Shown in pieces: positions 19,327-64,000 of a DNA stretch of 64,000 nt (within the stretch, counting starts at the first letter, position 1; each line of letters opens with the position of its first letter). Origin of the DNA: a bacterium (GTDB taxonomy: Bacteria; Armatimonadota; Zipacnadia; Zipacnadales; UBA11051); assembly GCA_030604405.1 (NCBI GenBank), contig JAUVVY010000004.1, forward strand, positions 86,853 through 150,852, in the 5' to 3' direction. A program made the position numbers and the translations under genes. Below the pieces are notes generated by a model that was not told the DNA's origin, made no database searches, and saw only the letters and a list, made by a program, of their open reading frames with translations.

Positions 19327-19575
19327 CTGTAATTGTACAAATTCTGCTAACGGCTGGGCCGGATTCTCCGGTGCCACCCACTGCGCACTCACACCTCCGG
19401 TGTGGGTACCCGGCACCTCCGTATGCGGCCCCTCCGCAAAACAACGTCTAAGCCTTTGAGCGCGTAGGTCGGGCTTTCCAGCCCGACAGCCGTTGTCGTC
19501 CGGAGGGGCCGCATGGAGGTGAGTTTGCCTGCAAACTCACGGCCATCCGGCCCAAGACTTGTCACAGCACCAGCG
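19327..19575. mobile_element. MITE-like structured repeat, copy 1 (truncated, about 250 bp)
   Basis: Shares about 130 bp of core with 38939..39266: ...aacgtctaa.cctttgagcgcgtaggtcgggctttccagcccgacagccgttgtcgtccggaggggccg.atgg...atccggcccaagactt.tcaca. The left end ctgtaattgtacaaattctgct resembles the terminal inverted repeat of copy 2. The right end overlaps the last four codons and stop of gene 19562..21028. Confidence 0.6.
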
Positions 19576-51907: not shown

Positions 51908-53005
51908 CTACCATTCCCTCGGATCCGGTACTGCCACCGGCTCGCCGCCGTTTTCCGCCGAGATGTGCGCGCAGATGCCCGGCAGCGTCCAATCCAGCCC
52001 CTCATAGACATCTATCGGCGGCTTGGTGTCATTGAGGATGCACTGCACAAACTCGTCCACCATGAAGTATTCGCTGGTGCCGTGACCGCCGACGGTGGCT
52101 TCCGCCGGGGCGGAGGGGTCGTTATTGGGCACATGCAACGTCATCGGCCCGCCGAGCTTGTCGTACTTCTCCCGATACAGCCGGTGCGTGCTGCAGCCGG
52201 CCTCCACCGCAAAGCGGCTCTGCTCGATCTGCCCCTCGGTGCCATAGACGCAGAACCAGTGATGCGCCGGCTCCTTGGCCGTCGCGAAGCCGCAAAGCTG
52301 CTTGATCGTGACGTTCCTGGCGGTCTTCAGCAGCGCCACTTCCATGTCAATGACGCCCAGGTCGGTTCGCCGCCGGCAGCCCGTGTGCATGCCCACTGCC
52401 GTCACGCAGCGGTCCTCAAGCCACTGCAGCAGCGGCCCTAAATCGTGGGTGCAGTAGTGTATCGGCGGCAGGCTCGCGCGCCAGGTCGGCTTGCCCTCAA
52501 CGCCGCCGCCCATGCCATCGGGCCGGCCTTCCATCAGGCTCTCGCAGTTGTGGATGTACTCGCCCTCGGCATAGATTATCTCGCCCAGTTCGCCATCGCG
52601 CACCAGGTCCCAGTACATCTGGCAATACGGAAAGTAGCACATATTCTCGGCGAAGCTATACTTCAGGCCGGACTCCCTGACGGCCTTAACTAGCTCCTGG
52701 CCGCCCTCGATGCTGGGCACCGCCGGCACCTCGCACTGCACGTGCTTGCCCGCCCGCAGCGCAGCAACCGAATGTTCCGCATGAAGCGGCGCGGGCGTAG
52801 CGACGAACACTGCGTCTATGTCGGCCTCCAGCATGTCGTCGAGTTCATCATACCGCTGCGGCACTTCGAGCCTGTCGCACAGCGCCTTGAGGAGGTCGGG
52901 ATTTCTATCCGCGACAGCGACGAGTTCGCAGTCTTTATGGTCCTTGAAGACGCTCGCTGGCCCGCTACCTCTTCCGGCACCGACTACGCCGATCCGCAGG
53001 GACAT
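51908..53005 (-). CDS. Gfo/Idh/MocA family oxidoreductase (tandem paralog 2)
   Basis: MSLRIGVVGAGRG. About 60% identical to 50557..51651, with the same C-terminus PVAVPDPREW. Confidence 0.75.
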   Translation of the reverse strand: MSLRIGVVGAGRGSGPASVFKDHKDCELVAVADRNPDLLKALCDRLEVPQRYDELDDMLEADIDAVFVATPAPLHAEHSVAALRAGKHVQCEVPAVPSIEGGQELVKAVRESGLKYSFAENMCYFPYCQMYWDLVRDGELGEIIYAEGEYIHNCESLMEGRPDGMGGGVEGKPTWRASLPPIHYCTHDLGPLLQWLEDRCVTAVGMHTGCRRRTDLGVIDMEVALLKTARNVTIKQLCGFATAKEPAHHWFCVYGTEGQIEQSRFAVEAGCSTHRLYREKYDKLGGPMTLHVPNNDPSAPAEATVGGHGTSEYFMVDEFVQCILNDTKPPIDVYEGLDWTLPGICAHISAENGGEPVAVPDPREW

Positions 53006-53037
53006 GGAATATAGCCTCCGTTGCTGGGTTCACTCAA

Positions 53038-53100
53038 AGTCGAGGGGTATATTCGGGGAGGATGGCTGATTGTCCTTCAGGAGCTCGGCTTTGGAGTGAT
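53038..53100. repeat. R1: imperfect copy of the ruvB 3' terminus (att-like direct repeat)
   Basis: tcaaagtcgaggggtatattcggggaggatggctgattgtccttcaggagctcgg is about 74% identical to the ruvB 3' end at 56665..56740. On the minus strand it encodes ...SPNIPLDFE*, compared with RuvB ...SPANIPLDFE*. Confidence 0.55.
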
Positions 53101-53225
53101 AGCATAACAGAGGGAGGGCATGACGTTGCGTTTTGCTATCTCCTCACAAGCCGGTGCCGAGCAGACTTGGGTATGCGTAGTCATATTGGGGTATCACTCC
53201 GTATTGTCGCAGATCGCTGAAGTTG

Positions 53226-53300
53226 CTACTTCAAACCGAGGGCTATATTCGGGGAGCACGCCTCTTCATCCTTCGGCGGCTGAAGGTTCGTATGGCGCTA
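53226..53300. repeat. R2: second imperfect copy of the ruvB 3' terminus
   Basis: tcaaaccgagggctatattcggggagcacgcctcttcatccttcggcggctgaaggttcg. Its minus-strand reading ends ...SPNIALGLK*. Confidence 0.5.
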
Positions 53301-53375
53301 GGGGTACGCAATGATGCTGCAGCCGCAGGAACTCGGAATCAAGGACCCGGTGTTGAGCGACCAGACCTCGACCAC

Positions 53376-54377
53376 CTACTGCAATGGGGGCTCGTTTTCA
53401 TCGAGTGTAGTAGTCCACTCGTTCTCGGGCGGGCCTCCGACGCTGAAGAATTTCTCGCCGTCGTAGTGAATCATGTGATCTGGAACCTCCGCAACCCAGA
53501 CCTCAGTTTCCCAGGCAATGTCATTCACGTGCTTCTTCAGCTCTGTGAATGATGGGAAGGCAGATACGTAAATCCGTTGGACTTCGCATCCAGAAAGGAT
53601 TTCTTCGAGTTCATTCCATCGCTTTGGAGAAACCGGCCCATGACTTGTCACTACCTCCACCAGCACAAGCAGTTGGCGCTGCTCCCAGAAGAGCACTACG
53701 TCAGCCAGTTTCCCGTGCTCAGCCAGTTGAACTCCGAAGTCCAGAAGCTGTGGTGCATCGATGAAGAGTGCTTTTTCTGCCGTGTCGCCGAAGTATAGAA
53801 TCCTGGCTCCTGGCGTGAATCGCGGCGCAAAATCTTGGACCACAGCGGCCTGCAGCTGGTTGTGCGCGCCTGGCGAAAGCACGAACTTCTGACCGTTCGC
53901 CGTCACGACCTCTATCTGGGCAAGTTCTCTGGGCTTCTGATAGAGTTCCGCAAGAGACCCTGCGCACGCTCTGAACTTGCTGGCGCTCTGTTCCCAATTC
54001 CCAGCGCCGAACCTCTGAAGAACCTCGTGAGCTTCCGGCGTTAGTCGATAGTTTGTGTTCGGGCTATTGGTGGGACGTTTGGGATCGTCCGCATTACGCA
54101 CCACAACAGCCGCCTGCTCAAGTTGGTGAAGCACTTGGCGACGCACGGTCTCCCGCGTGTTCTCGGCGTACGCTCTGCCATATCTCTCATTGATAAACAA
54201 CAGAATATTGTGAGGTCGTGTCGGCACCGCGACTGAATTTCTCCATGCATCCTGTGGCCCCAAGTTTGCTAGCGATAACAACGTCAAGGCGGAGAATTCA
54301 TTTTGCTGCGCGACTGGCAGCCCAAGTGCTTTCAGAATCGCCTGTGCCTCGGCTATGCGCATTTCAACACTATCCAT
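53376..54377 (-). CDS. type II restriction endonuclease, BsuBI/PstI-like (inferred)
   Basis: 333 aa. It overlaps by 8 nt the upstream gamma-class N6-adenine methyltransferase in the same operon. The N-terminal AILKALGLPVAQQNEFSALTLLSLANLG resembles the BsuBI/PstI N-domain. Lower GC than its surroundings. Confidence 0.5.
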   Translation of the reverse strand: MDSVEMRIAEAQAILKALGLPVAQQNEFSALTLLSLANLGPQDAWRNSVAVPTRPHNILLFINERYGRAYAENTRETVRRQVLHQLEQAAVVVRNADDPKRPTNSPNTNYRLTPEAHEVLQRFGAGNWEQSASKFRACAGSLAELYQKPRELAQIEVVTANGQKFVLSPGAHNQLQAAVVQDFAPRFTPGARILYFGDTAEKALFIDAPQLLDFGVQLAEHGKLADVVLFWEQRQLLVLVEVVTSHGPVSPKRWNELEEILSGCEVQRIYVSAFPSFTELKKHVNDIAWETEVWVAEVPDHMIHYDGEKFFSVGGPPENEWTTTLDENEPPLQ

Positions 54378-56013
54378 CTATTGTCTCACCCTCTGATACT
54401 AGACCTGCCGGCGCACCCAGCACCGTCTCCACGATACTGTCTAGCGTGCGGCTGGTGCTTTGTTGAATTTCTATGCCGATTGCCCTAATGACATCCATGG
54501 CTGGCAGAGGCAGTGCGCGTAGCTCGGTCGCATTTACTTGCGTATGGCCGTTTAGTATGCGGAAATACGTATCGACGAGTCGGCTGTTTAGCAAGCCGGC
54601 AAGACCATACGTCTCATCCATTGTTAGAGCGCCCTCCACCCTGTAAATATAATTCAGATGGTTCTCCAATCCAATGTACGGAGCGTCCAGGTCACCTCTA
54701 GTCAGGGGCGCGGCTACGATGCGCTTCTTTTGCTCCTTCGATGTAAACCGTCTTGTTAACACGTAATTGTCTAGAGGCACGAGAAGCTTCATGGACTCTG
54801 GCGATATCATGATACCTTGTGGTTTTTCGAGTTGCTCTAGCGGCCAATCGATATCCATCACGTCCACATTGTTCAGCATCAATAGCGGAGCCACGTCAGT
54901 CAGTGGTTTGCCTCGCCATGTGAAGTCCCTATTATGGTACCGCAAAAGGGCTTTTGCACGGAAAGCTACTACGGGACCCGTGGATACCTCCACCGCCAGA
55001 GATCTTAGGGTGTGTGGCCATGACAACATCCACTTGCGCAATTGCTCCTGCGCCTGCGTTGTGGGTATAAAAAGCATCTTCTCATAGGAAGTTAGATCAA
55101 TCACGCTTGGCAACGGTACCTGTATCCGATGGCGGTTCGAGATGTCGGAGATTCCGCGACTGCTGGAAATACCGACGAGGCGCTTGGCCCCCAATCCGCT
55201 TACATCTGCGCTACGTCTACGCACTCGCATGATCACGTTTTCCTGCAATACGTCATCTTTCGCAAAAGTATCCTTACGAGAGTCAAAGAGGTGGATGGCT
55301 TCAGGCACAGTGATTCGAAGCAATGCCTGGCGGAAACATCGAAAGTATAAACCAGTGGTAAAGCTCCTCGGCGAGATTGAGACCATGGTTCCGTTAGGCA
55401 CCAGAAGATGGGCAGCAATACCCATACAGATCGCGTAGATATTGGGCTGCCCATGCACAAGTTCTTTGGCTCTTTGAGCTCGCGGGTCCAGCTTTCGGAG
55501 CTTGAAATAGGGGGGATTCATTATGACCCGGCTGTACCTTGCACATGGTTGTCCCCAGAGAGTGCCTGAGCCTAAAGCCTCCCCATTCGCTAACACGAAA
55601 TCCTCTTTGATCACCGACGCATGCACGTTGCACCCGCGCTGGCTAGCCCACTGTCGTGCGTGCCCCAGAACGCGCGCTGCCAGGCAAGCCAAATCTGGGT
55701 CATTCTCATACGCATCTACGTGGAGTACTCTTGTCGTCCTATCGGCGACCGCCTTCTCGACTAATGCGCAAGTCAGTATTCCAGTGCCCGCACCCACGTC
55801 AAGGATACGCTCCTCCTTCCGGTCCAATTCGCACCACTGCGCCATGAAGTGTGCTATCTCTGGAGGCGTGAAGTACTGCCCTCGTTCCTTTTTGCGTTCT
55901 TCAGAAACGTTCTCCGCAAACCAGTGGGCTAGCATATCCGCATAGCTCACAGGTGACATATCCTGTGCTGGCTCGAGCAGGCCTGCGCTTCGAATAGCAT
56001 CACCAGTCAGCAT
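54370..56013 (-). CDS. N6-adenine DNA methyltransferase (Eco57I/PstI-like gamma class)
   Basis: GQYFTPPEIAHFM (motif X/I region), LDVGAGTGIL (AdoMet binding), VIMNPPYFK (NPPY motif IV). 547 aa. Confidence 0.8.
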   Translation of the reverse strand: MLTGDAIRSAGLLEPAQDMSPVSYADMLAHWFAENVSEERKKERGQYFTPPEIAHFMAQWCELDRKEERILDVGAGTGILTCALVEKAVADRTTRVLHVDAYENDPDLACLAARVLGHARQWASQRGCNVHASVIKEDFVLANGEALGSGTLWGQPCARYSRVIMNPPYFKLRKLDPRAQRAKELVHGQPNIYAICMGIAAHLLVPNGTMVSISPRSFTTGLYFRCFRQALLRITVPEAIHLFDSRKDTFAKDDVLQENVIMRVRRRSADVSGLGAKRLVGISSSRGISDISNRHRIQVPLPSVIDLTSYEKMLFIPTTQAQEQLRKWMLSWPHTLRSLAVEVSTGPVVAFRAKALLRYHNRDFTWRGKPLTDVAPLLMLNNVDVMDIDWPLEQLEKPQGIMISPESMKLLVPLDNYVLTRRFTSKEQKKRIVAAPLTRGDLDAPYIGLENHLNYIYRVEGALTMDETYGLAGLLNSRLVDTYFRILNGHTQVNATELRALPLPAMDVIRAIGIEIQQSTSRTLDSIVETVLGAPAGLVSEGETIDG

Positions 56014-56016
56014 TTC

Positions 56017-56520
56017 TCACTTCGCTCCGCGGACGATGAGAGAGTAGTCCTTCTTAGTGAGTCTCCGCATTGCTTGTCGGAAATAGAGACCCCAGTATTT
56101 CATTAACCGAGGCTCAACGAAACTCAACTTCTCCAGAAGTGGCCTTACAGGCTTGGGAGTTTTCCAAATCACCACATCGCTTAAGTCCAACTCAAGCTCC
56201 ATAAACGGAAGCTTTGGGACCCGGCGGGGGTCACTATAGTCCTCGAAAATCGCCCTTGTTTCGGAAGACACCCTCGCAGTTGCGGCAAAATAAGATCTGT
56301 TTGTCCCAGCCAAATAGAAAACAAGATAATCCCCCGGTTTAAGGGCTCGGCGGTTCGCCGCTGAATCGCCCATCTGCCAGGTGTTCTTCCGCAGTAACGC
56401 CTTGAGAGTCTTGTCTGCGGGTAGCACAAGGTCCCCGTACTCCAAATCGTTGACGGACACCATGAAATACGCAACGTCTTTCGCGCGGCTTAATCTCACG
56501 AGAGTCCCTCCACTGTGCAT
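56017..56520 (-). CDS. EVE/PUA-like domain protein (hypothetical; possibly binds modified bases)
   Basis: 167 aa. KPGDYLVFYLAGTNRSYFAATARV and the C-terminal DYSLI pattern resemble EVE (PUA-like) domains. It is first in the operon with the methyltransferase and endonuclease. Confidence 0.35.
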   Translation of the reverse strand: MHSGGTLVRLSRAKDVAYFMVSVNDLEYGDLVLPADKTLKALLRKNTWQMGDSAANRRALKPGDYLVFYLAGTNRSYFAATARVSSETRAIFEDYSDPRRVPKLPFMELELDLSDVVIWKTPKPVRPLLEKLSFVEPRLMKYWGLYFRQAMRRLTKKDYSLIVRGAK

Positions 56521-56661
56521 TTAAGTCCTTCGGCAGAAGCCTCGAAAGCACCGCTCAACCCGCTTGCCACCATCACCTACGACGTTCCCTTCGCCCAACA
56601 AGGCCCGAGTCGATGATCCGCCTATACCTTCATCGGTACCCCTTGTCGCCATCCTTACGTG

Positions 56662-56740
56662 CAGTGTCACTCAAAGTCCAATGGTATATTCGCCGGGGAT
56701 GGCTCTTTGTCCTCCGGCGGTTCGAGGTTCAGGTGGTCGT
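56662..56740. repeat. R3: the ruvB 3'-terminal segment itself, reference copy of the att-like repeat
   Basis: tcaaagtccaatggtatattcgccggggatggctctttgtcctccggcggttcgaggttc covers the last 20 or so codons of ruvB. It is homologous to R1 and R2. Confidence 0.55.
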
Positions 56741-57722
56741 AGGCGCGGGCGGTGACCTGGCGGCCGCGGGCCAGGCGAATCACGAACCCGATCTTCAGTA
56801 AGTACGGCTCCACAACCTCCTGCAAGGTGCCCTCGTCCTCGGCCAGCGTCGCGGCCACCGCGTTAAGACCCGCCGGACCACCGCCATAGTAACGAACGAT
56901 CGCCAGCAGGTACTTGCGGTCCAGTTCGTCAAGGCCCACAGCATCCACGCCCATCGCCGCCAGCGCCTCCTGGGCGATCTCGCAGGTGATCGAGCCATCG
57001 CCCTTGACCTGCGCATAGTCGCGCACTCGCCGCAGCAGCCGGTTGACGATACGCGCCGTCCCGCGCGCCCTGGTGGCAAGCTCGCTGCAGCCGTCCGGGG
57101 TCATCTCGATCTCCAGCAGCCGCGCCGACCGCTCTACGATTAGCTCCAACTGCTCGGGGGTGTAGAAGTCTATGTGGTGGAAGATGCCGAAGCGCTCGCG
57201 CATCGGCCCGGTCAGCAGTCCCGCGCGGGTGGTGGCGCCGATCAGCGTGAACGGCTCCAGGTGCAGCGGGATGGACTTGGCATAGGGGCCGCTGTCCACC
57301 ACGAAGTCAATCCGAAAATCCTCCATCGCCGAGTACAGGTACTCCTCGACGATGCGCGGCAGGCGGTGGACTTCGTCTATGAACAGCACGTCGCCGCGCT
57401 TGAGGTTGGTCAGGATGCCGACTAAGTCGGAGGGCCGCTCGATCGCCGGCCCGGAGCTGCGGGTGATCTCGGAGCCCATCTCGTGGGCGATGATATGGGC
57501 CAGCGTGGTCTTGCCGAGACCCGGCGGGCCGTGGAACAGGATATGCTCCAGCACATCGTCGCGCTCCCTGGCGGCATCTATGGACACGCGCAGGTTGTCT
57601 ATGAGCTGCCGCTGGCCCACATCGTATTCGTCCAGGGTCTCCGGGCGCAGGGCGAAGTTAATGTCGTCCTCTTCGCGCTGGTGGCCGGTTACAACTCTCT
57701 CACGGCCGGGTTGCTCATCCAT
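56667..57722 (-). CDS. ruvB: Holliday junction branch-migration ATPase RuvB
   Basis: LRPETLDEYDVGQ, GPPGLGKTTLA, DEVHRL, ATTRAGLLTGPMRERFG motifs. Start set at Met10 (RBS agagg); the upstream extension runs into the intergenic hairpins. Confidence 0.95.
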   Translation of the reverse strand: MDEQPGRERVVTGHQREEDDINFALRPETLDEYDVGQRQLIDNLRVSIDAARERDDVLEHILFHGPPGLGKTTLAHIIAHEMGSEITRSSGPAIERPSDLVGILTNLKRGDVLFIDEVHRLPRIVEEYLYSAMEDFRIDFVVDSGPYAKSIPLHLEPFTLIGATTRAGLLTGPMRERFGIFHHIDFYTPEQLELIVERSARLLEIEMTPDGCSELATRARGTARIVNRLLRRVRDYAQVKGDGSITCEIAQEALAAMGVDAVGLDELDRKYLLAIVRYYGGGPAGLNAVAATLAEDEGTLQEVVEPYLLKIGFVIRLARGRQVTARAYDHLNLEPPEDKEPSPANIPLDFE

Positions 57723-57756
57723 GTGGAACAGACCTCTGCCGGCCCTCACCCCTGAC

Positions 57757-57843
57757 CCCTCTCCCTGAGGGAGAGGGGAAAAGGCGCGCGGACTCGGATT
57801 TTAGTTTCGCATTAGCTGTCAACCCTCTCCCTCTGGGAGAGGG
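57757..57843. promoter_or_regulatory. two hairpins with identical 9-bp stems in the ruvA-ruvB spacer
   Basis: cccctctccc-tga-gggagagggg at 57757..57779 and accctctccc-tct-gggagagggt at 57823..57845. Confidence 0.5.
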
Positions 57844-57873
57844 TGGCCGAAGGCCGGGTGAGGGGCCGTTGTT

Positions 57874-58488
57874 CTAGCGCTTCAGCACTACCTTCACGAT
57901 CTCCTCGACGTCCGTCAACTCAGCACCTGAGGCATGGAGCGCCAGCACCGCCTGTATCGCCTCGTGTTCCGACACGCCGAGCTGCTGCAAGATCTCGATG
58001 GCCTGGGCCTCGGCGTCGCTTTCTACGGTCGCACCGGCGGCCACCGGCTCCAGTTCCTCGGCGCCGATGAACTGGCCGAGCTTACCCTGCAACTGAGCGA
58101 CCAACGCCTTGGCGGTGTTGGCGCCGACGCCCTGCAGGGACTTCAAGGTCTTGGTGTCGCCGATCTCGATGGCCTTGGCGTAGGTAGAAAGCGGGATGGT
58201 CATGCTGCGCAGCGCCGAGCGCGGGCCGAAGCGCGGCGCCTCGATGAGTTGCTCGAAAAAGTCGCGCTGGGCATCCGTCTCGAAGCCCATCAGCACCGGC
58301 GTACTGCGGGCCTGCTCCTGGTACAGATAGTGGAAAGTGTGCAGCTCGATTTCGGAGCCGACCGGGCGCTCGGCCAGCCGCTCGGCGGTGGAGGGCGCGA
58401 CCAGCACCTCGTAGCACAGATGCTCGGCCTGCAGCAGCACGTGCTCAGCGCCGACTTCGACGAGTTGTCCGCGGATGCGTCGTATCAA
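57874..58488 (-). CDS. ruvA: Holliday junction DNA helicase subunit RuvA
   Basis: 204 aa. OB-fold N-terminus, two HhH motifs (LQGVGANTAKALV), C-terminal domain III. Confidence 0.9.
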   Translation of the reverse strand: MIRRIRGQLVEVGAEHVLLQAEHLCYEVLVAPSTAERLAERPVGSEIELHTFHYLYQEQARSTPVLMGFETDAQRDFFEQLIEAPRFGPRSALRSMTIPLSTYAKAIEIGDTKTLKSLQGVGANTAKALVAQLQGKLGQFIGAEELEPVAAGATVESDAEAQAIEILQQLGVSEHEAIQAVLALHASGAELTDVEEIVKVVLKR

Positions 58489-58991
58489 TTGCGATATCTC
58501 CTGTTCGCCTCGATGGCATTTTCGCGGCCGCGGCTGTGGCAGATGGCCAGCGCCAGGGCGTCGGTGATGTCAGCCGGCCTGGGCGGCTGCCCGAGAGACA
58601 AGAGCTCGCAGACCATGCGCCCGACCTGCTCTTTGGAGGCTCGTCCGCTGCCGGTCAGGGACTTCTTGACCTTTGACGCCTCGTACTCGCGCACCGGTAT
58701 GCTCGCAGCAGCGGCAGCCAGGCAGATGACCCCGCGGGCGTGGCCCATGAGTATCGCGGTTTGCGGGTGGCGGTACTTGGCGTAGAGCCGCTCGACCACC
58801 GCCACCTCAGGCTGCAATTCCCGCAGCACCTCGAGCATGCCCTCGTAGATAGACAGCAGGCGCAGTTCCAGTGGCGCCTCGGCGTCAGTGCGCACCACAC
58901 CGCCCTCGACGAGTGTGCATTTGCCGTCGGCGACCTCGACGACGCCGTAGCCTGTGCACTGCAGCCCCGGATCTATTCCGATAATCCGCAT
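58485..58991 (-). CDS. ruvC: crossover junction endodeoxyribonuclease RuvC
   Basis: MRIIGIDPGL.CTGYGV, ...VVERLY, DALALAICH motifs (RNase-H-like catalytic residues). Confidence 0.9.
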   Translation of the reverse strand: MRIIGIDPGLQCTGYGVVEVADGKCTLVEGGVVRTDAEAPLELRLLSIYEGMLEVLRELQPEVAVVERLYAKYRHPQTAILMGHARGVICLAAAAASIPVREYEASKVKKSLTGSGRASKEQVGRMVCELLSLGQPPRPADITDALALAICHSRGRENAIEANRRYRN

Positions 58992-59082
58992 GATAGCGAG
59001 TCGTTAGGCTTCTTGGGAGTGAGATAGTTGTGCATGAAGGACAATAGACAAGCACATAGGCACACAGCAACAAAGCTGAAAG

Positions 59083-59619
59083 CTACGGCAGCCAATTTAG
59101 CCGTTGGAGTTCTTCGTAAGCTTCCGAGATTTGAGTGCGACTTACTTTGGGCTTCAAACGCATAACGGCATTGCTGATCTCCTCACGAGTTTGGTTGTCA
59201 CTCCGTTGTGCAACGAAATGGATAGTAGCAAGCAGGCCCAATTCTGGAGCACTGCGCCCCAAAAGGCAATCAATGACCTCGTTAACTTGCCGTGGCAACC
59301 TGTCTATATCTGCTTCGTTTTCCGTAAGAAGTTCTCCTGTGGCGCGTGTAATTTGGATTCTGTGGTCTCTACGATGTGTGTCATCAATCTCCGTGTACCC
59401 TAATACATTAGACAGGGAAAGATGGGCAGCTAGATCTCTGGAAAATGGGCCGTAGTAGTCAATTGCGAACCGATAATCTGATGGTAACCCACCAACTTCT
59501 TGTGCGAAGTAAACGAGCTTCTGGAAGCGCGTCTTGTTCAGATATTCTTCCCGTTGCCGTGCTCTGTTGGCGACGTACAACGCATAGACCCAGTTATCAT
59601 CTACGAAAGTTGGCTTCAT
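59083..59619 (-). CDS. Panacea-domain (DUF4065) protein, putative antitoxin or sensor partner
   Basis: 178 aa. KTRFQKLVYFAQEVGG...YRFAIDYYGPFSRDL matches the Panacea/DUF4065 signature (KLQKLLYFA ... YGPV). Start ATG at 59617..59619 overlaps the stop of the upstream HD gene as ATGA. Low GC. Confidence 0.6.
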   Translation of the reverse strand: MKPTFVDDNWVYALYVANRARQREEYLNKTRFQKLVYFAQEVGGLPSDYRFAIDYYGPFSRDLAAHLSLSNVLGYTEIDDTHRRDHRIQITRATGELLTENEADIDRLPRQVNEVIDCLLGRSAPELGLLATIHFVAQRSDNQTREEISNAVMRLKPKVSRTQISEAYEELQRLNWLP

Positions 59620-60860
59620 TGTGGTTCCCTCCATAGGCGGATTATATCCTGTTCTATATCCCTCTCGCAATACAGCCGGCGTTGTGAAATAGGACGGAGA
59701 AGCGTGATAAGAGCAGAACATTCCTGAATCGGCTGGGGCACCCCGGTGGTCTCGTCAATAACCAAGAAATTGGCTTCTTCGAAGTTGTGCAGGGCCTTTT
59801 CGGGACTATCGACCCACAAATTCGGGGTGTACTTCTCTGGCAATTTGGCTATGCATCCATCAAAATGTGTGAGCTCCGTACTATCTGCGTGCTCAAACGT
59901 CTCGCGAAAAAGCTTCATGTGTTGGCGATGCGTAATCTTATGCACATCTTCATCACCGGGATTATTAGTCATCCAAGTAATAATGCGGGCATCATTGCAT
60001 TGAAGGTACTTGGATGTGTCGGTGGGATATTTTTCAAGGCCTTCGGCCTTTAGCACCTTGCGAATCACATTTCCAAGATGGTAGTCCAAAGCTCTCCTGG
60101 TCTTGTGAAAATACACCTGTGTGAACATGAAGTAGCGGGCCAAAATCATTTCTTCCGCAGCATGTACCCCTCCTGCCTCAATACCCAGTAGCGGGCCCTG
60201 CTCTTCATCTTTATCAGAGGCTGGAGGAATTGTGAGCGAATGGACCAACCTTGGATAATTGAAACGCCCACAGTTGAGGCCGATATGATGGCTGTCACGC
60301 GAGAGATAATCCATCCGATCGGCGTCTAAGTCGCCAGAAATCAACTGGTGCATCAAGGGGCCGAGTCTGGACGTACTTTCGCCAGTAAGTGTGTCACATA
60401 CTTCGCTGGCGGTTATGCCATATGGGTTAAGTTTGCTGTCGTCGAGAAGTGAAGAGTATTCATCTCTTATGATCCTACAACTAAACTCTTCATGTGGCAT
60501 CGGCATGAGATCGTGTGTCTCGCTTGCGTGAGAGAACGGTGCATGCCCGACGTCATGAAGTAATGCGGTGATCCGGAGTATCTGTTTGGCGCGCCCAATG
60601 TCCTCTTCATCTGGGGCATACGGCTTGAGGCAGTGTTTGCGTTCAAGTGTTTCAAACATGTCTGTGGCAAATTGCATCACTCCAAGCGAGTGAGCAAATC
60701 TGGAATGCTCCCCGCTGGGGTAGACGCAGTAGCTCATGCTAAGTTGTCGAATATGGTGTAGCCTTTGAAATGGGGCTGAGTCCACAATCTGTGTTTCCAG
60801 CTCATTCAGGGCGATATTGCCGTGAATAGCATCCCAAACAGTAACCGGTATTGCACTCAT
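59616..60860 (-). CDS. HD-domain dNTP triphosphohydrolase (SAMHD1/Dgt-like)
   Basis: FQRLHHIRQLSMSYCVYPSGEHSRFAHSLGV matches the SAMHD1/Dgt motif FQRLRxIxQLG....V.P.A.H.RFEHSLGV. LLHDVGHAPFSHASE matches CHDLGHGPFSH. 414 aa. Low GC. Confidence 0.75.
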   Translation of the reverse strand: MSAIPVTVWDAIHGNIALNELETQIVDSAPFQRLHHIRQLSMSYCVYPSGEHSRFAHSLGVMQFATDMFETLERKHCLKPYAPDEEDIGRAKQILRITALLHDVGHAPFSHASETHDLMPMPHEEFSCRIIRDEYSSLLDDSKLNPYGITASEVCDTLTGESTSRLGPLMHQLISGDLDADRMDYLSRDSHHIGLNCGRFNYPRLVHSLTIPPASDKDEEQGPLLGIEAGGVHAAEEMILARYFMFTQVYFHKTRRALDYHLGNVIRKVLKAEGLEKYPTDTSKYLQCNDARIITWMTNNPGDEDVHKITHRQHMKLFRETFEHADSTELTHFDGCIAKLPEKYTPNLWVDSPEKALHNFEEANFLVIDETTGVPQPIQECSALITLLRPISQRRLYCERDIEQDIIRLWREPQ

Positions 60861-60935
60861 CCTCTTTTTCTGCTACGTGTTCACACGAACTATTTTACAT
60901 ATTCAACCAAGCTGTGTGGATACCCTCTTATTATA

Positions 60936-60955
60936 CATAGAACATTTGTTCTATG
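60936..60955. promoter_or_regulatory. perfect 9-bp inverted repeat (putative operator) upstream of the HD-dNTPase operon
   Basis: catagaaca-tt-tgttctatg, about 75 bp upstream of the HD gene start, inside an AT-rich divergent promoter region (60861..61149). Confidence 0.5.
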
Positions 60956-61149
60956 TCAAGCATATATCGGGTTCTGCTTCATACAAAGCCAATCATAAGT
61001 CACAGATTCCGATTGCACTACAACGTACATATAGCATCAGGTGTTTCAGCGAATGAATGAGGCTTTGTTGCCATACGTTGGGAGGTTAGAGACTAGACAC
61101 CCAGAATATACGAAATGTAGTCTGCGACTTCTGACTAGCTCGATGGACA

Positions 61150-62376
61150 GTGATTCAGGAAATGCTGTTTGTTTGCGATCTGCATGTGCATATTGGGCGG
61201 GCGAGTACCGGGGAGGCCGTCAAGATCACTGCCGCTCGTGATCTGACCTTCGAAAATATCGCCAAAGAGGCCGCCGAGCGCAAGGGCATTGATATCGTCG
61301 CGGTGATAGACTGTGCCTCGCCGCCGGTCATCGCCGACATCGAGGCGTGCCTGGACAGTGGCGAGATGGAAGAAACTCACGGCGGCGGGCTGCGCTACCG
61401 CGACCAGGTCACGATGATTCTCGGCGCTGAGATCGAGACCCGTGAGAAAACCGGCGGCATGTCGCACCATCTAAGCTATTTCCGCAGCCTGCAGCAGTTG
61501 AAGCAATTCTCCCAGACGCTGAGCCAACATGTCACCAATATCAACCTGTCGTCGCAGGCCTGTGGGCTGACCGCGCGCGAGCTTTTCACTGTAGCCGACG
61601 ACTGCGGAGCGTTCTTTGTCCCGGCGCATTGCTTCACCCCGCACAAGAGCCTTTACGGGGCATGCACCGACAGCATGACGGCAATATTCGGCGAGGCATG
61701 GGAGCAGATCCCGGCAATTGAGCTCGGCCTGTCGGCGGATGCTTACCTGGCCGACCGCATCGCAGAGCTTGCGGACAAGAGCCTGCTGGCCAATTCGGAT
61801 GCTCATAGTCTGCCCAGGATCGGCCGGGAGTACAACCTCATCGAGATGCAATCCGCCTCGTATGACGAGCTGTTGATGGCGCTGTCGCGGCAGGAGGGGC
61901 GGCACGTGGCGGCGAACTTCGGCCTTGACCCGCGCTTAGGGAAATACCACCGCACCTACTGCGAGGCCTGCGGGCATATCGCAGCAGGCGAGCCGCCGGT
62001 GCAGATATGCGAGCGCTGCGGCAGTCACAACATCACGCGCGGCGTGCTGGACCGCATCGTGCAGATAGCCGACTACGATGAGCCGCAGCAGCCCTCCCAC
62101 CGAGGGCCATACCAGTACCAGGTGCCGCTGCAGTTCGTCCCTGGCGTCGGCACCGTGACACTCAACCGGCTGATCAACCGTTTCGGCAGCGAGATGGCCG
62201 TCCTGCACCAGGCCACTCGCGAGGAACTCGGGCAGACCGTCGGACAGAAGAGGGCGGAGCTGATAATCCAGGCCCGCGAGGGGACGCTGCCGCTGCAGGC
62301 CGGCGGCGGTGGCAGGTACGGCCGCGCCCTTACCGAAAGGGACACCGGCCAGATGAGCTTGCCGGGGATATCTTGA
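61150..62376 (+). CDS. EndoQ-like (TIGR00375 family) PHP-domain nuclease with zinc ribbon
   Basis: N-terminal MLFVCDLHVHIG PHP motif, further His/Asp ladder (AHCFTPH, NSDAHS), zinc ribbon CEACGH...CERCGSHN. About 400 aa. Confidence 0.5.
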   Translation: MIQEMLFVCDLHVHIGRASTGEAVKITAARDLTFENIAKEAAERKGIDIVAVIDCASPPVIADIEACLDSGEMEETHGGGLRYRDQVTMILGAEIETREKTGGMSHHLSYFRSLQQLKQFSQTLSQHVTNINLSSQACGLTARELFTVADDCGAFFVPAHCFTPHKSLYGACTDSMTAIFGEAWEQIPAIELGLSADAYLADRIAELADKSLLANSDAHSLPRIGREYNLIEMQSASYDELLMALSRQEGRHVAANFGLDPRLGKYHRTYCEACGHIAAGEPPVQICERCGSHNITRGVLDRIVQIADYDEPQQPSHRGPYQYQVPLQFVPGVGTVTLNRLINRFGSEMAVLHQATREELGQTVGQKRAELIIQAREGTLPLQAGGGGRYGRALTERDTGQMSLPGIS

Positions 62377-62398
62377 TGCAACGGAGAGTTACCAAGAC

Positions 62399-63352
62399 AT
62401 GACCCAGCGAATCTGCTACATCGGCGCCGGGAATTTCAGCAACGGTTTCATCTACCCGCAGCTTGCGCAGCATGATGTCGAGCTGGCGGCGGTGTGCGAC
62501 CTCATTGAGCAGAAGGCCCAGGCTGCGGCGGCCAAATTCGGCTTCCAGAATGTCTATACCGATTTCGAGAAGATGTGTGATGAGCAGGAGCCGGATGCGG
62601 TGTTCTGCGTAGGCGGGCCGCAGGTGCACTACGAGGTCGGGATGAAGATTATCGAGCGCGGGCTGCCACTGTACGTGCAGAAGCCGCCGGCCGGCACTTC
62701 AGAGCTCACCAGGCAGATGGCTGCGCTCGCCGAGCAGAACAGCACCGTCTGCCATGTCGGCTTCAACATGCGCTCCTCGGGCGCGGTCATGATGACGAAG
62801 GAGTTCATGGCCGGCGCTGACTTCGGCGACCCGACGCTGATGATCTATCGCTACGGCCTGGTGAGCGGCAGGGACTGGCGACACGCAATCTACGACCAGC
62901 ACTGCCACGCAGCCGACACGATGCTGTACCTGCTCGGCGAGGTGGAAAGCATCCACGTCGAGCCGCTTTTGCAGGAAGACGCGCGCGGCTACATAGCGGC
63001 GATGCGGATGAAAAACGGCGCGCTGGCAACGCTCAACACGACCTCCGAGCAGGACATGCGGGACGAGTTCATCTATTTTGAGATAACCGGGCGCAGCCAG
63101 CATTATGTAACCTCGCACGACGGCGATTTGCGCTACCATCGGCCGGATGGAGCAGACCTTTGCCTGCGAGCGGGGACGTACTATCCGGGGCGGCTGCTGG
63201 AGCATTTCGGCTATGTCGAGGACGTGCGCAATTTCCTGGCCGCGGCGCGCGGCGAGGAGCCAGACCGCTGTCCGGTGGCCGATACGATAAAGACAATGGC
63301 GCTTGTCGAGGAAATCTACAGACAGTGCCGAGAAAAGGGTGGTCCAGAATGA
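62399..63352 (+). CDS. Gfo/Idh/MocA family oxidoreductase
   Basis: ICYIGAGNFSNGFIYPQL, VQKPPA motifs. 317 aa. Confidence 0.7.
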   Translation: MTQRICYIGAGNFSNGFIYPQLAQHDVELAAVCDLIEQKAQAAAAKFGFQNVYTDFEKMCDEQEPDAVFCVGGPQVHYEVGMKIIERGLPLYVQKPPAGTSELTRQMAALAEQNSTVCHVGFNMRSSGAVMMTKEFMAGADFGDPTLMIYRYGLVSGRDWRHAIYDQHCHAADTMLYLLGEVESIHVEPLLQEDARGYIAAMRMKNGALATLNTTSEQDMRDEFIYFEITGRSQHYVTSHDGDLRYHRPDGADLCLRAGTYYPGRLLEHFGYVEDVRNFLAAARGEEPDRCPVADTIKTMALVEEIYRQCREKGGPE

Positions 63353-64000
63353 AATTTGCTGCGGGAATCCATGCCGTAACGGACTTTGGCAATGACACGA
63401 TACGTTTCTCAGACGCGCTGGCAATCATCACTGACTGCGGCTTCGACCGCGTGATGCTGGTGTCAGTGCCTGGCGGCCCGGTGCTGAGGCGGGGAGAGAC
63501 GCCGAATGGGGCGTTCTTGAACCTCGCCACATCGGACCTGGACCTCGTCGCCGGGCAATTGCGCAGGGCAGGTCTTGATGTCGAGGTTGTCCATGCCGCG
63601 GGCGTTGACGCAAGTACGGCCGAGGCGATGGATCAAAGCACTGACTGGCTGCAGGCCATTTCCGAGGCGGCGGCACAACTGGGCTGCCGCTACGTGGGGC
63701 ACAGTTGCGGAGCGGCCGGCGCGCCGGGGATGAGCACTGCGGACAAGCACGATCAGATCAACCGGCTGGCTGAGATCGTGGACGAAGTCGCCGCCACCAT
63801 GCCGGAGCTGCACTTCGCCGTGGACGTGCACTGTCACGGGACCGTGGAGAGCGTTGCCGACTGTGAGTATTATCTTGAGCAGCTTTCATCCACCAATGCC
63901 GGCATCCTGCTCAACACCGGCCACATGACCACCTGCAACCAGCCGGGCTGGGAGCTGGCGCAAAACTATCCGGATCGGACGCCCATTATCGGCTGGAAGG
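63349..64000 (+). CDS. sugar phosphate isomerase/epimerase (xylose-isomerase-like TIM barrel), 5' partial, continues past the window end
   Basis: ATG at 63349 overlaps the upstream stop (ATGA). The translation MKFAAGIHAVTDFGND...VDVHCHGTVES...NTGHM is open to 64000. It is not in the ORF track because no stop falls in the window. Confidence 0.6.
   Translation, partial: MKFAAGIHAVTDFGNDTIRFSDALAIITDCGFDRVMLVSVPGGPVLRRGETPNGAFLNLATSDLDLVAGQLRRAGLDVEVVHAAGVDASTAEAMDQSTDWLQAISEAAAQLGCRYVGHSCGAAGAPGMSTADKHDQINRLAEIVDEVAATMPELHFAVDVHCHGTVESVADCEYYLEQLSSTNAGILLNTGHMTTCNQPGWELAQNYPDRTPIIGWK

Follow-up and report, generated by a model that had tools for sequence, protein, structure and literature searches.

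The window analysed here, 64,000 nucleotides (nt) of contig JAUVVY010000004.1 from a bacterium of the Armatimonadota (assembly GCA_030604405.1), carries a compact two-gene cassette of low G+C (GC) content next to the ruvCAB genes. The first of the two genes codes for a predicted SAMHD1-like HD phosphohydrolase; the second, which overlaps it, codes for a small protein of putative antitoxin type, and the promoter that faces the pair encloses a perfect palindrome with a candidate LexA box at its core. Homologous pairs are found in many other genomes, and we consider below what kind of module they may constitute.

The HD gene lies on the minus strand (59616-60860) and encodes a 414-amino-acid (aa) SAMHD1-like phosphohydrolase of the COG1078/YdhJ type, a putative deoxynucleoside triphosphate (dNTP) triphosphohydrolase effector, assigned by hidden Markov model (HMM) searches, PDB matches and alignment. 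Its open reading frame (ORF) carries PFQRLHHIRQLSMSYCVYPSGEHSRFAHSLGV and LLHDVGHAPFSH, and the frames of both ORFs of the pair agree with those of a gene call on the same contig. Pfam HD (PF01966; 2.7e-10, 41 bits against a cut-off of 22) and Pfam HD_assoc_2 (PF19276; 1e-09, 38.6 bits against a cut-off of 23.1) both match, and the best solved relatives are an Aquifex protein (2hek, 2.4e-49 over the full length), Enterococcus EF1143 (2o6i, 6.8e-31), Bacteroides 2Q14 and SAMHD1 (~5e-21). The HD core, the C-lobe (HD_assoc_2) and the motifs are common to the window enzyme, SAMHD1, EF1143/3IRH, Aq_1910/2HEK and BT 2Q14; in particular, the DxDRxDYxxRD and VYFHK (YxHK) motifs align with those of 2hek, EF1143 and SAMHD1. 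The metal ligands and catalytic residues H52, H102-D103, H106 and D181 are invariant in an alignment of 32 homologues, as are D184-Y185, R188-D189 and Y250-F251-H252, and all of these are present in the window protein. The triad of the allosteric A1 site (SAMHD1 D137, Q142 and R145) is represented by D27, Q32 and a histidine at position 35, whose SAMHD1 counterpart R145 we take to be the guanine-binding residue of allosteric site 1. An earlier note on this DNA had described the protein as an HD dNTPase carrying the triphosphohydrolase signature, and the signature motifs, the HMM matches and the catalytic residues retained in the 32-homologue alignment agree with a SAMHD1-type homologue; hydrolysis of dNTPs is its most likely activity as judged from the sequence.

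The four structures 2HEK, 3IRH, 2Q14 and SAMHD1 belong to one SAMHD1-like COG1078/YdhJ family that is distinct from the Dgt-like enzymes, and the SAMHD1-like COG1078 members are auxiliary genes with signs of horizontal transfer (PMC7854603). Two more specific labels were considered and rejected. A Dgt-type dGTPase is matched at 38.5 bits against a cut-off of 152 (TIGR01353), and only residues 24-115 align; the anti-phage dGTPase model NF041026 scores 26.7 bits against a cut-off of 400 and the PADLOC dGTPase model 41 bits, through the N-terminal HD motif only.

The small gene (59083-59619, minus strand) encodes a protein of 178 aa that HMM and fold comparisons place as a stand-alone DarG C-terminal-domain (CTD)/Panacea-superfamily protein, a putative antitoxin or regulator. 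The program-made ORF list gives the small ORF 212 aa, and the gene call on the same contig starts at the ATG at 59619, yielding the 178-aa form. The ORF contains QKLVYFAQ...YYGPFS, and the protein had been labelled Panacea/DUF4065. For the window protein itself this label was rejected, as PF13274 gives no match even at E <= 10 and Pfam returns only noise (PknG_TPR, HrpB1); at the level of the family it stands. The PADLOC DarG model (PDLC02990) matches at 5.8e-15 over model positions 170-327 of 329, and NCBIfam DarG (NF048014) at 8.8e-13 over positions 170-336 of 338 (48 bits against an equivalog cut-off of 250), such that both matches cover the C-terminal, toxin-binding half only. Searching the PDB by sequence brought up nothing useful for the small protein, for which a fold search and a family profile were needed. 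The AlphaFold2 model (pLDDT 90.9, pTM 0.88) superimposes over its full length on 7yk3_B, the DarG C-terminal domain in the Mycobacterium tuberculosis DarTG complex, which is the best Foldseek match (E 6.3e-07, TM 0.74/0.70, 23% identity); the next matches are weak ones to winged-helix/MarR folds (E >= 0.07). A profile of 78 family members finds the same 7yk3_B chain at 2.3e-10.

DUF4065 proteins are homologous to the C-terminal inhibitor domain of DarG (PMC13621843, 2026), and PanA antitoxins form complexes with their toxins (PMC8832971). Because 26 of the 78 relatives match PF13274 SocA_Panacea, albeit weakly (E <= 1; best 1.6e-06), and because the DarG CTD is recovered by both HMM and fold, we regard the small protein as a predicted divergent, stand-alone member of the DarG-CTD/Panacea superfamily. 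The label DarG does not apply to it, since there is no macrodomain and no DarT neighbour. The relationship to DarTG is therefore partial: the small protein shares homology and fold with the DarG CTD, which binds and inhibits DarT (PMC13621843), whereas the window locus lacks the macrodomain and DarT and encodes, as the partner, an HD hydrolase instead of a DNA ADP-ribosyltransferase. The small protein would at most act in the manner of DarG's type II half, and we do not class the locus as DarTG.

The TGA stop codon of the HD gene (59618-59616) overlaps the ATG of the small gene (59619-59617) as ATGA (59616-59619, minus strand), as was first noted and is confirmed by reading the sequence; this arrangement is one of predicted translational coupling. 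A Shine-Dalgarno sequence, GGAGGG (59627-59632, minus strand), is situated 7 nt upstream of the small-gene ATG, and the AAGAGG of the HD gene directly abuts its own ATG, a layout that, we infer, would favour an excess of the small protein. In addition, a promoter-like site (TTGCGA-18 nt-TATAAT, 59641-59670, minus strand; 10/12 in the promoter scan) within the 3' end of the HD gene carries one half-site TAGAACA (repeat D11) and could give additional expression of the small gene. A Chloroflexota locus (L090:7894-7905) has GAACAAATGTTC, with a core as in the window, between its HD and small genes, which hints at a small-gene promoter under separate SOS control.

Transcription towards the HD gene is predicted from a consensus sigma-70 promoter (TTGACA-18 nt-TATAAT, 60930-60959, minus strand; 12/12 in the promoter scan), and its spacer is filled by a perfect 10-2-10 palindrome, ACATAGAACA-tt-TGTTCTATGT, at 60935-60956, such that the minus strand reads TTGACA-TAGAACAAATGTTCTATG-TATAAT. 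This palindrome had been described as a 9-2-9 repeat, and it is real, each arm being one base longer. A scan for perfect palindromes (arms >= 10 nt, loop <= 4 nt) gives five hits in the window, corresponding to four distinct palindromes, and block shuffles average 0.5; another of them, GTGAGTTTGCCTGCAAACTCAC, is located at 19519-19540. The core of the promoter palindrome (60940-60951) is a candidate LexA (SOS) box of the Firmicutes/Actinobacteria/Chloroflexi type, with the form GAAC-N4-GTTC, GAACATTTGTTC. GAAC-N4-GTTC is the LexA motif of Firmicutes and Actinobacteria, that of the Gammaproteobacteria being CTGT-N8-ACAG (PMC4951493). The window contains no second exact box, and boxes with one mismatch occur at chance level.

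Comparison with homologous modules shows that the motif recurs in the same position. Among 138 non-identical loci, 12 have the exact motif in the 200 nt that precede the HD gene, against 0.36 expected (shuffle maximum 3), and 37 have it there when one mismatch is allowed, against 9.0 +/- 2.8. Counted over all of the fetched loci (1.55 Mb), there are 35 exact motifs, and 12 of these fall within the 2% of the sequence that is upstream of HD genes. The enrichment upstream of homologous modules is ~16-fold and is found in Terrabacteria only. With up to one mismatch, the motif is present at 19 of 34 Chloroflexota loci (in 13 cases between -27 and -36 relative to the estimated start), 5 of 10 Bacillota loci, the single Aquicultor locus and both of the other Armatimonadota loci, as against 1 of 7 in Acidobacteriota and 0 of 4 in archaea. 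It often sits between recognisable -35 and -10 elements (L046, L059, L056 and L080), and its flanks and spacer fit C/A-GAAC-RNNY-GTTC-G/T. A further comparison is with a module from another Armatimonadota metagenome-assembled genome (MAG; L010), which is 67% identical, has different flanking genes and reads TTGACA-tcGAACgcctGTTTggct-TATGAT; the -35 element, the box and the -10 element are conserved between the two while the surrounding bases diverge. We take the palindrome most likely to be a host LexA (SOS) box, a predicted role that is likelier than self-regulation by the module.

The cassette has clearly been acquired. GC content is 0.41-0.52 across ~58950-61200 and 0.60-0.68 in ruvCAB and beyond 61200, in keeping with the earlier remark that the module is richer in A and T than its surroundings. 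Two contigs (L174 and L175) were obtained from relatives whose RuvC has at least 90% identity to that of the window; both are ~96% identical to the window at the nucleotide level in both flanks and lack the cassette, and in both the PHP/Endonuclease Q (EndoQ) gene and ruvC are divergent neighbours with a spacer of 173 nt. Alignment of these contigs with the window by blastn gives homology over 62966-61159 and 58994-57770 and none between, and local alignment confirms the breakpoints at 61159 and 58994, each of which is 3 bases upstream of the flanking start codon. The homology break and the drop in GC content thus delimit a segment of 2,164 nt (58995-61158), slightly wider than the 59083-61149 given previously, and it took the place of the native 173-nt EndoQ-ruvC spacer. 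Because relatives that are ~96% identical have these genes 173 nt apart without the segment, it is an acquired cassette, and both the horizontal acquisition and the insertion upstream of ruvCAB that had been suggested are seen directly in the empty sites. No direct repeats or target-site duplication were found flanking the cassette, the window has no tRNA genes usable as an integration site, and an Rfam scan of 52000-64000 returned no RNA family.

The pair is widespread. A word-indexed search had suggested that the small protein belongs to a rare family with nine relatives, an impression overturned by a pattern scan and an exhaustive HMM search. The pattern scan, using one genome per species, found 159 relatives, of which 80 loci were kept, and the exhaustive profile search found 3,985 representatives (at 50% identity) with E <= 1e-3 and 1,246 with E <= 1e-10; among the 150 of these that were listed, nearly all are 170-200 aa long. 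The 159 relatives are mostly from Dehalococcoidia/Chloroflexota, with others in Acidobacteriota, Bacillota, Bacteroidota, Armatimonadota and several archaeal lineages; the closest in the scan is from Armatimonadota (63% identity). In ~65 of the 80 loci the small gene is immediately preceded by a co-oriented HD homologue, most often at a distance of -4 to +20 nt. When all neighbouring ORFs are clustered, the HD and small families are the only ones in common, at 76 and 71 loci, the next family being present at 8. When metagenome loci are anchored instead on the HD gene and have enough downstream sequence, 53 of 67 have the partner, or 55 of 67 counting two that are offset; a stricter classification gives 105 full-length HD genes with a partner and 8 scored as solo, and for two of these eight the partner is in fact adjacent and was overlooked by the automatic classifier. 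Distances within the two protein families are strongly correlated (Mantel r 0.85, a value reached in 0 of 500 permutations), with the small protein evolving faster (median identity 25% against 35% for HD). Nor does the HD gene behave as a housekeeping dGTPase syntenic with ruvC, as no other neighbouring family occurs in more than 8 of the 80 loci and the ~96%-identical relatives of the window genome lack the HD-small pair altogether.

Several individual loci are informative about the small protein. It is intact beside HD fragments or remnants in several of them (e.g. L057 and L063). In a Dehalococcoidia locus (L027:6883-8468), a gene of the small family is translationally coupled to a HaeIII-type endonuclease gene (Pfam 9e-68) in place of an HD gene, an exchange of partner which suggests that the small domain can pair with other harmful enzymes. 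In a Methanosaeta MAG (L068:5217-8209) a bona fide DarG (Macro + CTD, 379 aa) is convergent to an HD-small pair, so that two members of the superfamily are encoded side by side. Elsewhere (L086) an ORC/CDC6-like ATPase gene follows the small gene. The neighbours within two genes on either side (n = 150) include scattered strong matches to defence genes, namely SoFic, PDC-S01, type II and type IIG restriction endonucleases, DrmD, DarT, DolB and LmuA, and we regard an association with defence islands as suggestive. PADLOC v2 has no model for the pair and yields only weak dGTPase and DarG matches. As in the description of type II toxin–antitoxin (TA) genes by Kurata et al., the two genes are adjacent, co-oriented and less than 100 nt apart, are paired across species and are not part of a larger conserved operon. 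On these patterns the pair is predicted to be a widespread, self-contained TA-like or conflict module. Of the original proposal of a TA-like or defence module, the first part is borne out by the conservation of the unit across very different contexts, and the second is plausible and weakly supported by the neighbourhood.

A combination of this kind was thought at first to be undescribed; however, Dataset S1 of Kurata et al. 2022 (PMC8832971) already predicts such a pair, T34/pT33, consisting of an 'HD domain-containing protein' (CDD YdhJ) and PanA. In T34 the PanA lacks an N-terminal domain, the toxin precedes the antitoxin, and the gaps range from -17 to +23 nt and include -4; the five genomes are all of Firmicutes (Ammonifex, Desulfofundulus and three Caldicellulosiruptor), and the main text of the article does not discuss T34 (PMC8832971). 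The window pair resembles T34 in having an HD/YdhJ toxin candidate, a short Panacea-type partner and the toxin-first order, and differs in having a small protein that has diverged too far to be recognised by the Pfam Panacea model. Judged by annotation and architecture, the two appear to be the same families. Beyond the Kurata dataset, we found no description of the HD-small pair or of SOS control of the pair in the literature. What is new beyond T34 is the wider distribution, the fold match to the DarG CTD, the LexA-type box and the empty-site evidence.

The genes to either side of the cassette belong to the host. On the minus strand, ruvC (58485-58991), ruvA (57874-58488) and ruvB (56667-57749) span 56667-58991 and were identified by Pfam RuvC and RuvA_N matches and by the RuvB homologues retrieved; they are now downstream of the cassette, and their native promoter spacer is gone. 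Of ten named RuvB homologues with 64-76% identity, nine are labelled Armatimonadota, which makes a host from that phylum most likely. In the empty site this spacer (L174:1809-1981) has a TATAAT 20 nt upstream of ruvC that the window does not have, and between the small gene and ruvC (58995-59082) no promoter-like or terminator-like site is predicted. Because the entire EndoQ-ruvC spacer has been replaced and no terminator follows the cassette, read-through from the cassette probably now transcribes ruvCAB, whose expression may thus depend on the promoter with the candidate SOS box. The empty-site spacer also has an inverted repeat, AGGAACAT-N15-ATGTTCCT, upstream of ruvC (L174:1834-1864), and the ruvA-ruvB intergenic region has two similar GC-rich perfect hairpins, CCCCTCTCCCTGAGGGAGAGGGG at 57756-57778 and ACCCTCTCCCTCTGGGAGAGGGT at 57822-57844.

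On the other side of the cassette is a plus-strand gene (61162-62376) for an Endonuclease Q homologue with a PHP domain and a zinc finger, matching PfuEndoQ (5zb8, 8.1e-45), 7k30 (3.8e-44) and TIGR00375 (8.3e-80); it probably starts at the ATG at 61162 (404 aa) rather than at the GTG at 61150. This is a bacterial EndoQ homologue, and its zinc finger has the form CxxC...CxxC. A second island of lower GC content (0.49-0.55; 53376-56520, minus strand) is located beyond the other side of ruvCAB and contains genes for an EVE-domain protein (56017-56520), a type II N6-adenine methyltransferase (54370-56013; PADLOC MTase_II, 2.7e-107) and a BsuBI/PstI-family restriction endonuclease (53376-54377), all on the minus strand and packed tightly as in an operon. 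With this restriction-modification (R-M)/EVE island on its other side, ruvCAB is sandwiched between two accessory modules.

Taking the locus and its homologues together, we favour, with slightly better than even confidence, the interpretation that the cassette represents a two-gene TA-like family in which a SAMHD1-like dNTPase is coupled to a DarG-CTD/Panacea partner behind a LexA-type promoter. Characterised DarG-CTD/Panacea members neutralise their partner enzyme by direct binding (PMC8832971, PMC13621843). In the scheme that we infer, which runs from dNTPase activity and its physical inhibition to LexA binding, a trigger and an anti-phage role, the small protein would bind the dNTPase and keep it inactive. 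The operon would be silent until SOS induction because its promoter spacer is most likely bound by host LexA, which would occupy the palindrome. A trigger, be it loss or turnover of the partner, phage infection or DNA damage, would remove or outnumber the small protein, and the freed enzyme would drain the dNTP pool and halt replication of the phage, an induced prophage or the cell. Such depletion may benefit the host, through defence against phages or induced prophages, the cassette itself, through addiction, or the physiology of DNA repair.

The solved bacterial SAMHD1-like enzymes were studied as single proteins and are nucleotide-regulated, whereas enzymes of the window type have a dedicated partner in 80-90% of the sampled loci, often have an SOS-type promoter, and have no SAM domain. 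Escherichia coli has several LexA-regulated TA loci, among them tisB/istR, symER, yafNO and dinJ-yafQ, and these resemble the module in being TA-like operons behind an SOS box whose expression is licensed by damage; their toxins and antitoxins are unrelated to those of the module, however, and their LexA motif is of a different type. The box of the module recurs across several phyla as a feature of the family. Anti-phage depletion of dNTPs, which Tal et al. are said to have described in 2022, reportedly involves a Dgt-type dGTPase or a dCTP deaminase and starves phage DNA synthesis. The proposed outcome here is similar, but those enzymes are of a different lineage from the window HD protein and, unlike the window pair, are encoded by single genes without an antitoxin-like partner.

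A number of observations weigh against this interpretation. The HD enzyme is not obviously lethal alone, since partnerless loci exist and solved homologues have been made in E. coli; SAMHD1-like genes without a partner are found in 6 to 12 loci. Several of the 'split' HD genes come from long-read MAGs and are possibly assembly frameshifts. At residue 35, where >90% of relatives have arginine, the window protein shares a histidine with P0011, its closest relative, a change that may alter nucleotide activation. The window small protein fails both the Pfam Panacea model and the full-length DarG models. As to the promoter, the exact GAAC-N4-GTTC motif occurs once in 64 kb where 0.78 is expected by chance, and because this single motif is at chance level the LexA case rests on the enrichment across loci; the box was scored against the Firmicutes/Actinobacteria LexA consensus, the motif of the Armatimonadota being undocumented, and the 64-kb window has no recA, lexA or uvr genes with which the box could be compared. 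As to the context, the 150 neighbours are mostly housekeeping genes and defence genes are only scattered near homologous loci, no plasmid match was found for the small protein and only distant ones for the HD protein, and viral contigs yielded one weak relative. Finally, the T34 entries are flagged 'notest' (PMC8832971).

We propose only tentatively the further step that the cassette is an SOS-licensed immunity or abortive module acting by dNTP depletion, in which LexA silences the pair, damage, phage or prophage activity induces it, and loss of the inhibitor unleashes the dNTPase, so that phages and induced prophages could no longer replicate. In such a module the inhibitor may be a nucleic-acid mimic that acts at the oligonucleotide or allosteric interface of the enzyme.

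An alternative that retains the SOS control is that the pair is an accessory, SOS-inducible regulator of the nucleotide pool, in which the dNTPase would lower or rebalance dNTPs during repair with the small protein as its regulatory or allosteric subunit, and the position beside ruvCAB and Endonuclease Q would reflect a role in repair. LexA-type boxes upstream of many homologous modules, the situation of the window cassette between two DNA-repair loci, the mostly housekeeping neighbours of homologous loci and the existence of partnerless HD genes all accord with this, as does the fact that SAMHD1-like enzymes are single auxiliary genes in many genomes (PMC7854603). However, the ~150 other loci show no synteny with repair genes, and genomes that are ~96% identical lack the pair, which is a presence/absence polymorphism. 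Moreover, the only characterised relatives of the partner in fold or sequence are antitoxin domains, and the coupling of a small gene to an endonuclease (L027) and its retention beside a decayed HD gene are better explained by neutralisation. We therefore consider a regulator of the nucleotide pool unlikely.

It is also conceivable that the palindrome is the module's own operator and that the small protein, or a complex of it with the HD protein, autoregulates the operon without LexA. Many type II antitoxins autoregulate, the palindrome sits in the promoter spacer of the module and has travelled with it (the window and L010 have the same layout in different flanks), and one half-site is found again ahead of the small gene. 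Weak fold matches to winged-helix/MarR-like proteins come from the N-terminal half of the small protein, and some relatives weakly match winged-helix Pfam families. The motif, though, is identical to the documented LexA consensus, as in the CGAACATATGTTCG of L065 (PMC4951493). It remains essentially constant beside small proteins of 25-35% mutual identity, and it is missing from the Acidobacteriota and archaeal loci that encode the same family, lineages without this LexA specificity; both features are expected of a host factor and argue against a repressor encoded by the module. DNA binding by PanA proteins, furthermore, has been ascribed to extra N-terminal helix-turn-helix domains (PMC8832971), which are absent from the 178-aa protein. 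The pattern of the motif across loci and taxa thus favours host LexA over the autoregulation by a repressor that the earlier note had read into the palindrome, and an operator of the module's own seems still less probable than a regulator of the nucleotide pool.

The least probable of these explanations is that the cassette serves addiction alone, selfishly and without a part in phage defence or DNA-damage physiology, and persists because its loss would free a stable dNTPase from a labile antitoxin: the unit is mobile, self-contained and inserted singly among housekeeping genes, is polymorphic in presence between close relatives and leaves antitoxin genes that survive beside toxin remnants, but on plasmids and in viral contigs, the places where addiction pays, the searches found no relative of the small protein (with distant HD matches only) and a single relative, respectively, the conserved SOS-type operator implies regulated deployment, and some neighbours are defence genes (type I and II R-M, SoFic, DarT, Lamassu LmuA and DISARM DrmD).

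For the biology of these enzymes, the wider point is that SAMHD1-like dNTPases are common in prokaryotes and that many of them, forming a large clade, move in constant association with a protein of the antitoxin type, in Terrabacteria often behind a LexA-type box. The T34 prediction thereby becomes a testable model of a protein-gated, DNA-damage-licensed module of nucleotide depletion, one that bears on the control of phages and prophages and on the evolutionary roots of SAMHD1 restriction. If the immunity proposal is true, antiviral restriction of the SAMHD1 type would have in the pair a prokaryotic antecedent, one controlled by a dedicated protein switch, and an immunity module that is missing from current defence catalogues would span the Terrabacteria and archaea. 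In the genome of the window, the consequence is a clean replacement of the native spacer by the cassette, which has probably rewired the expression of ruvCAB.

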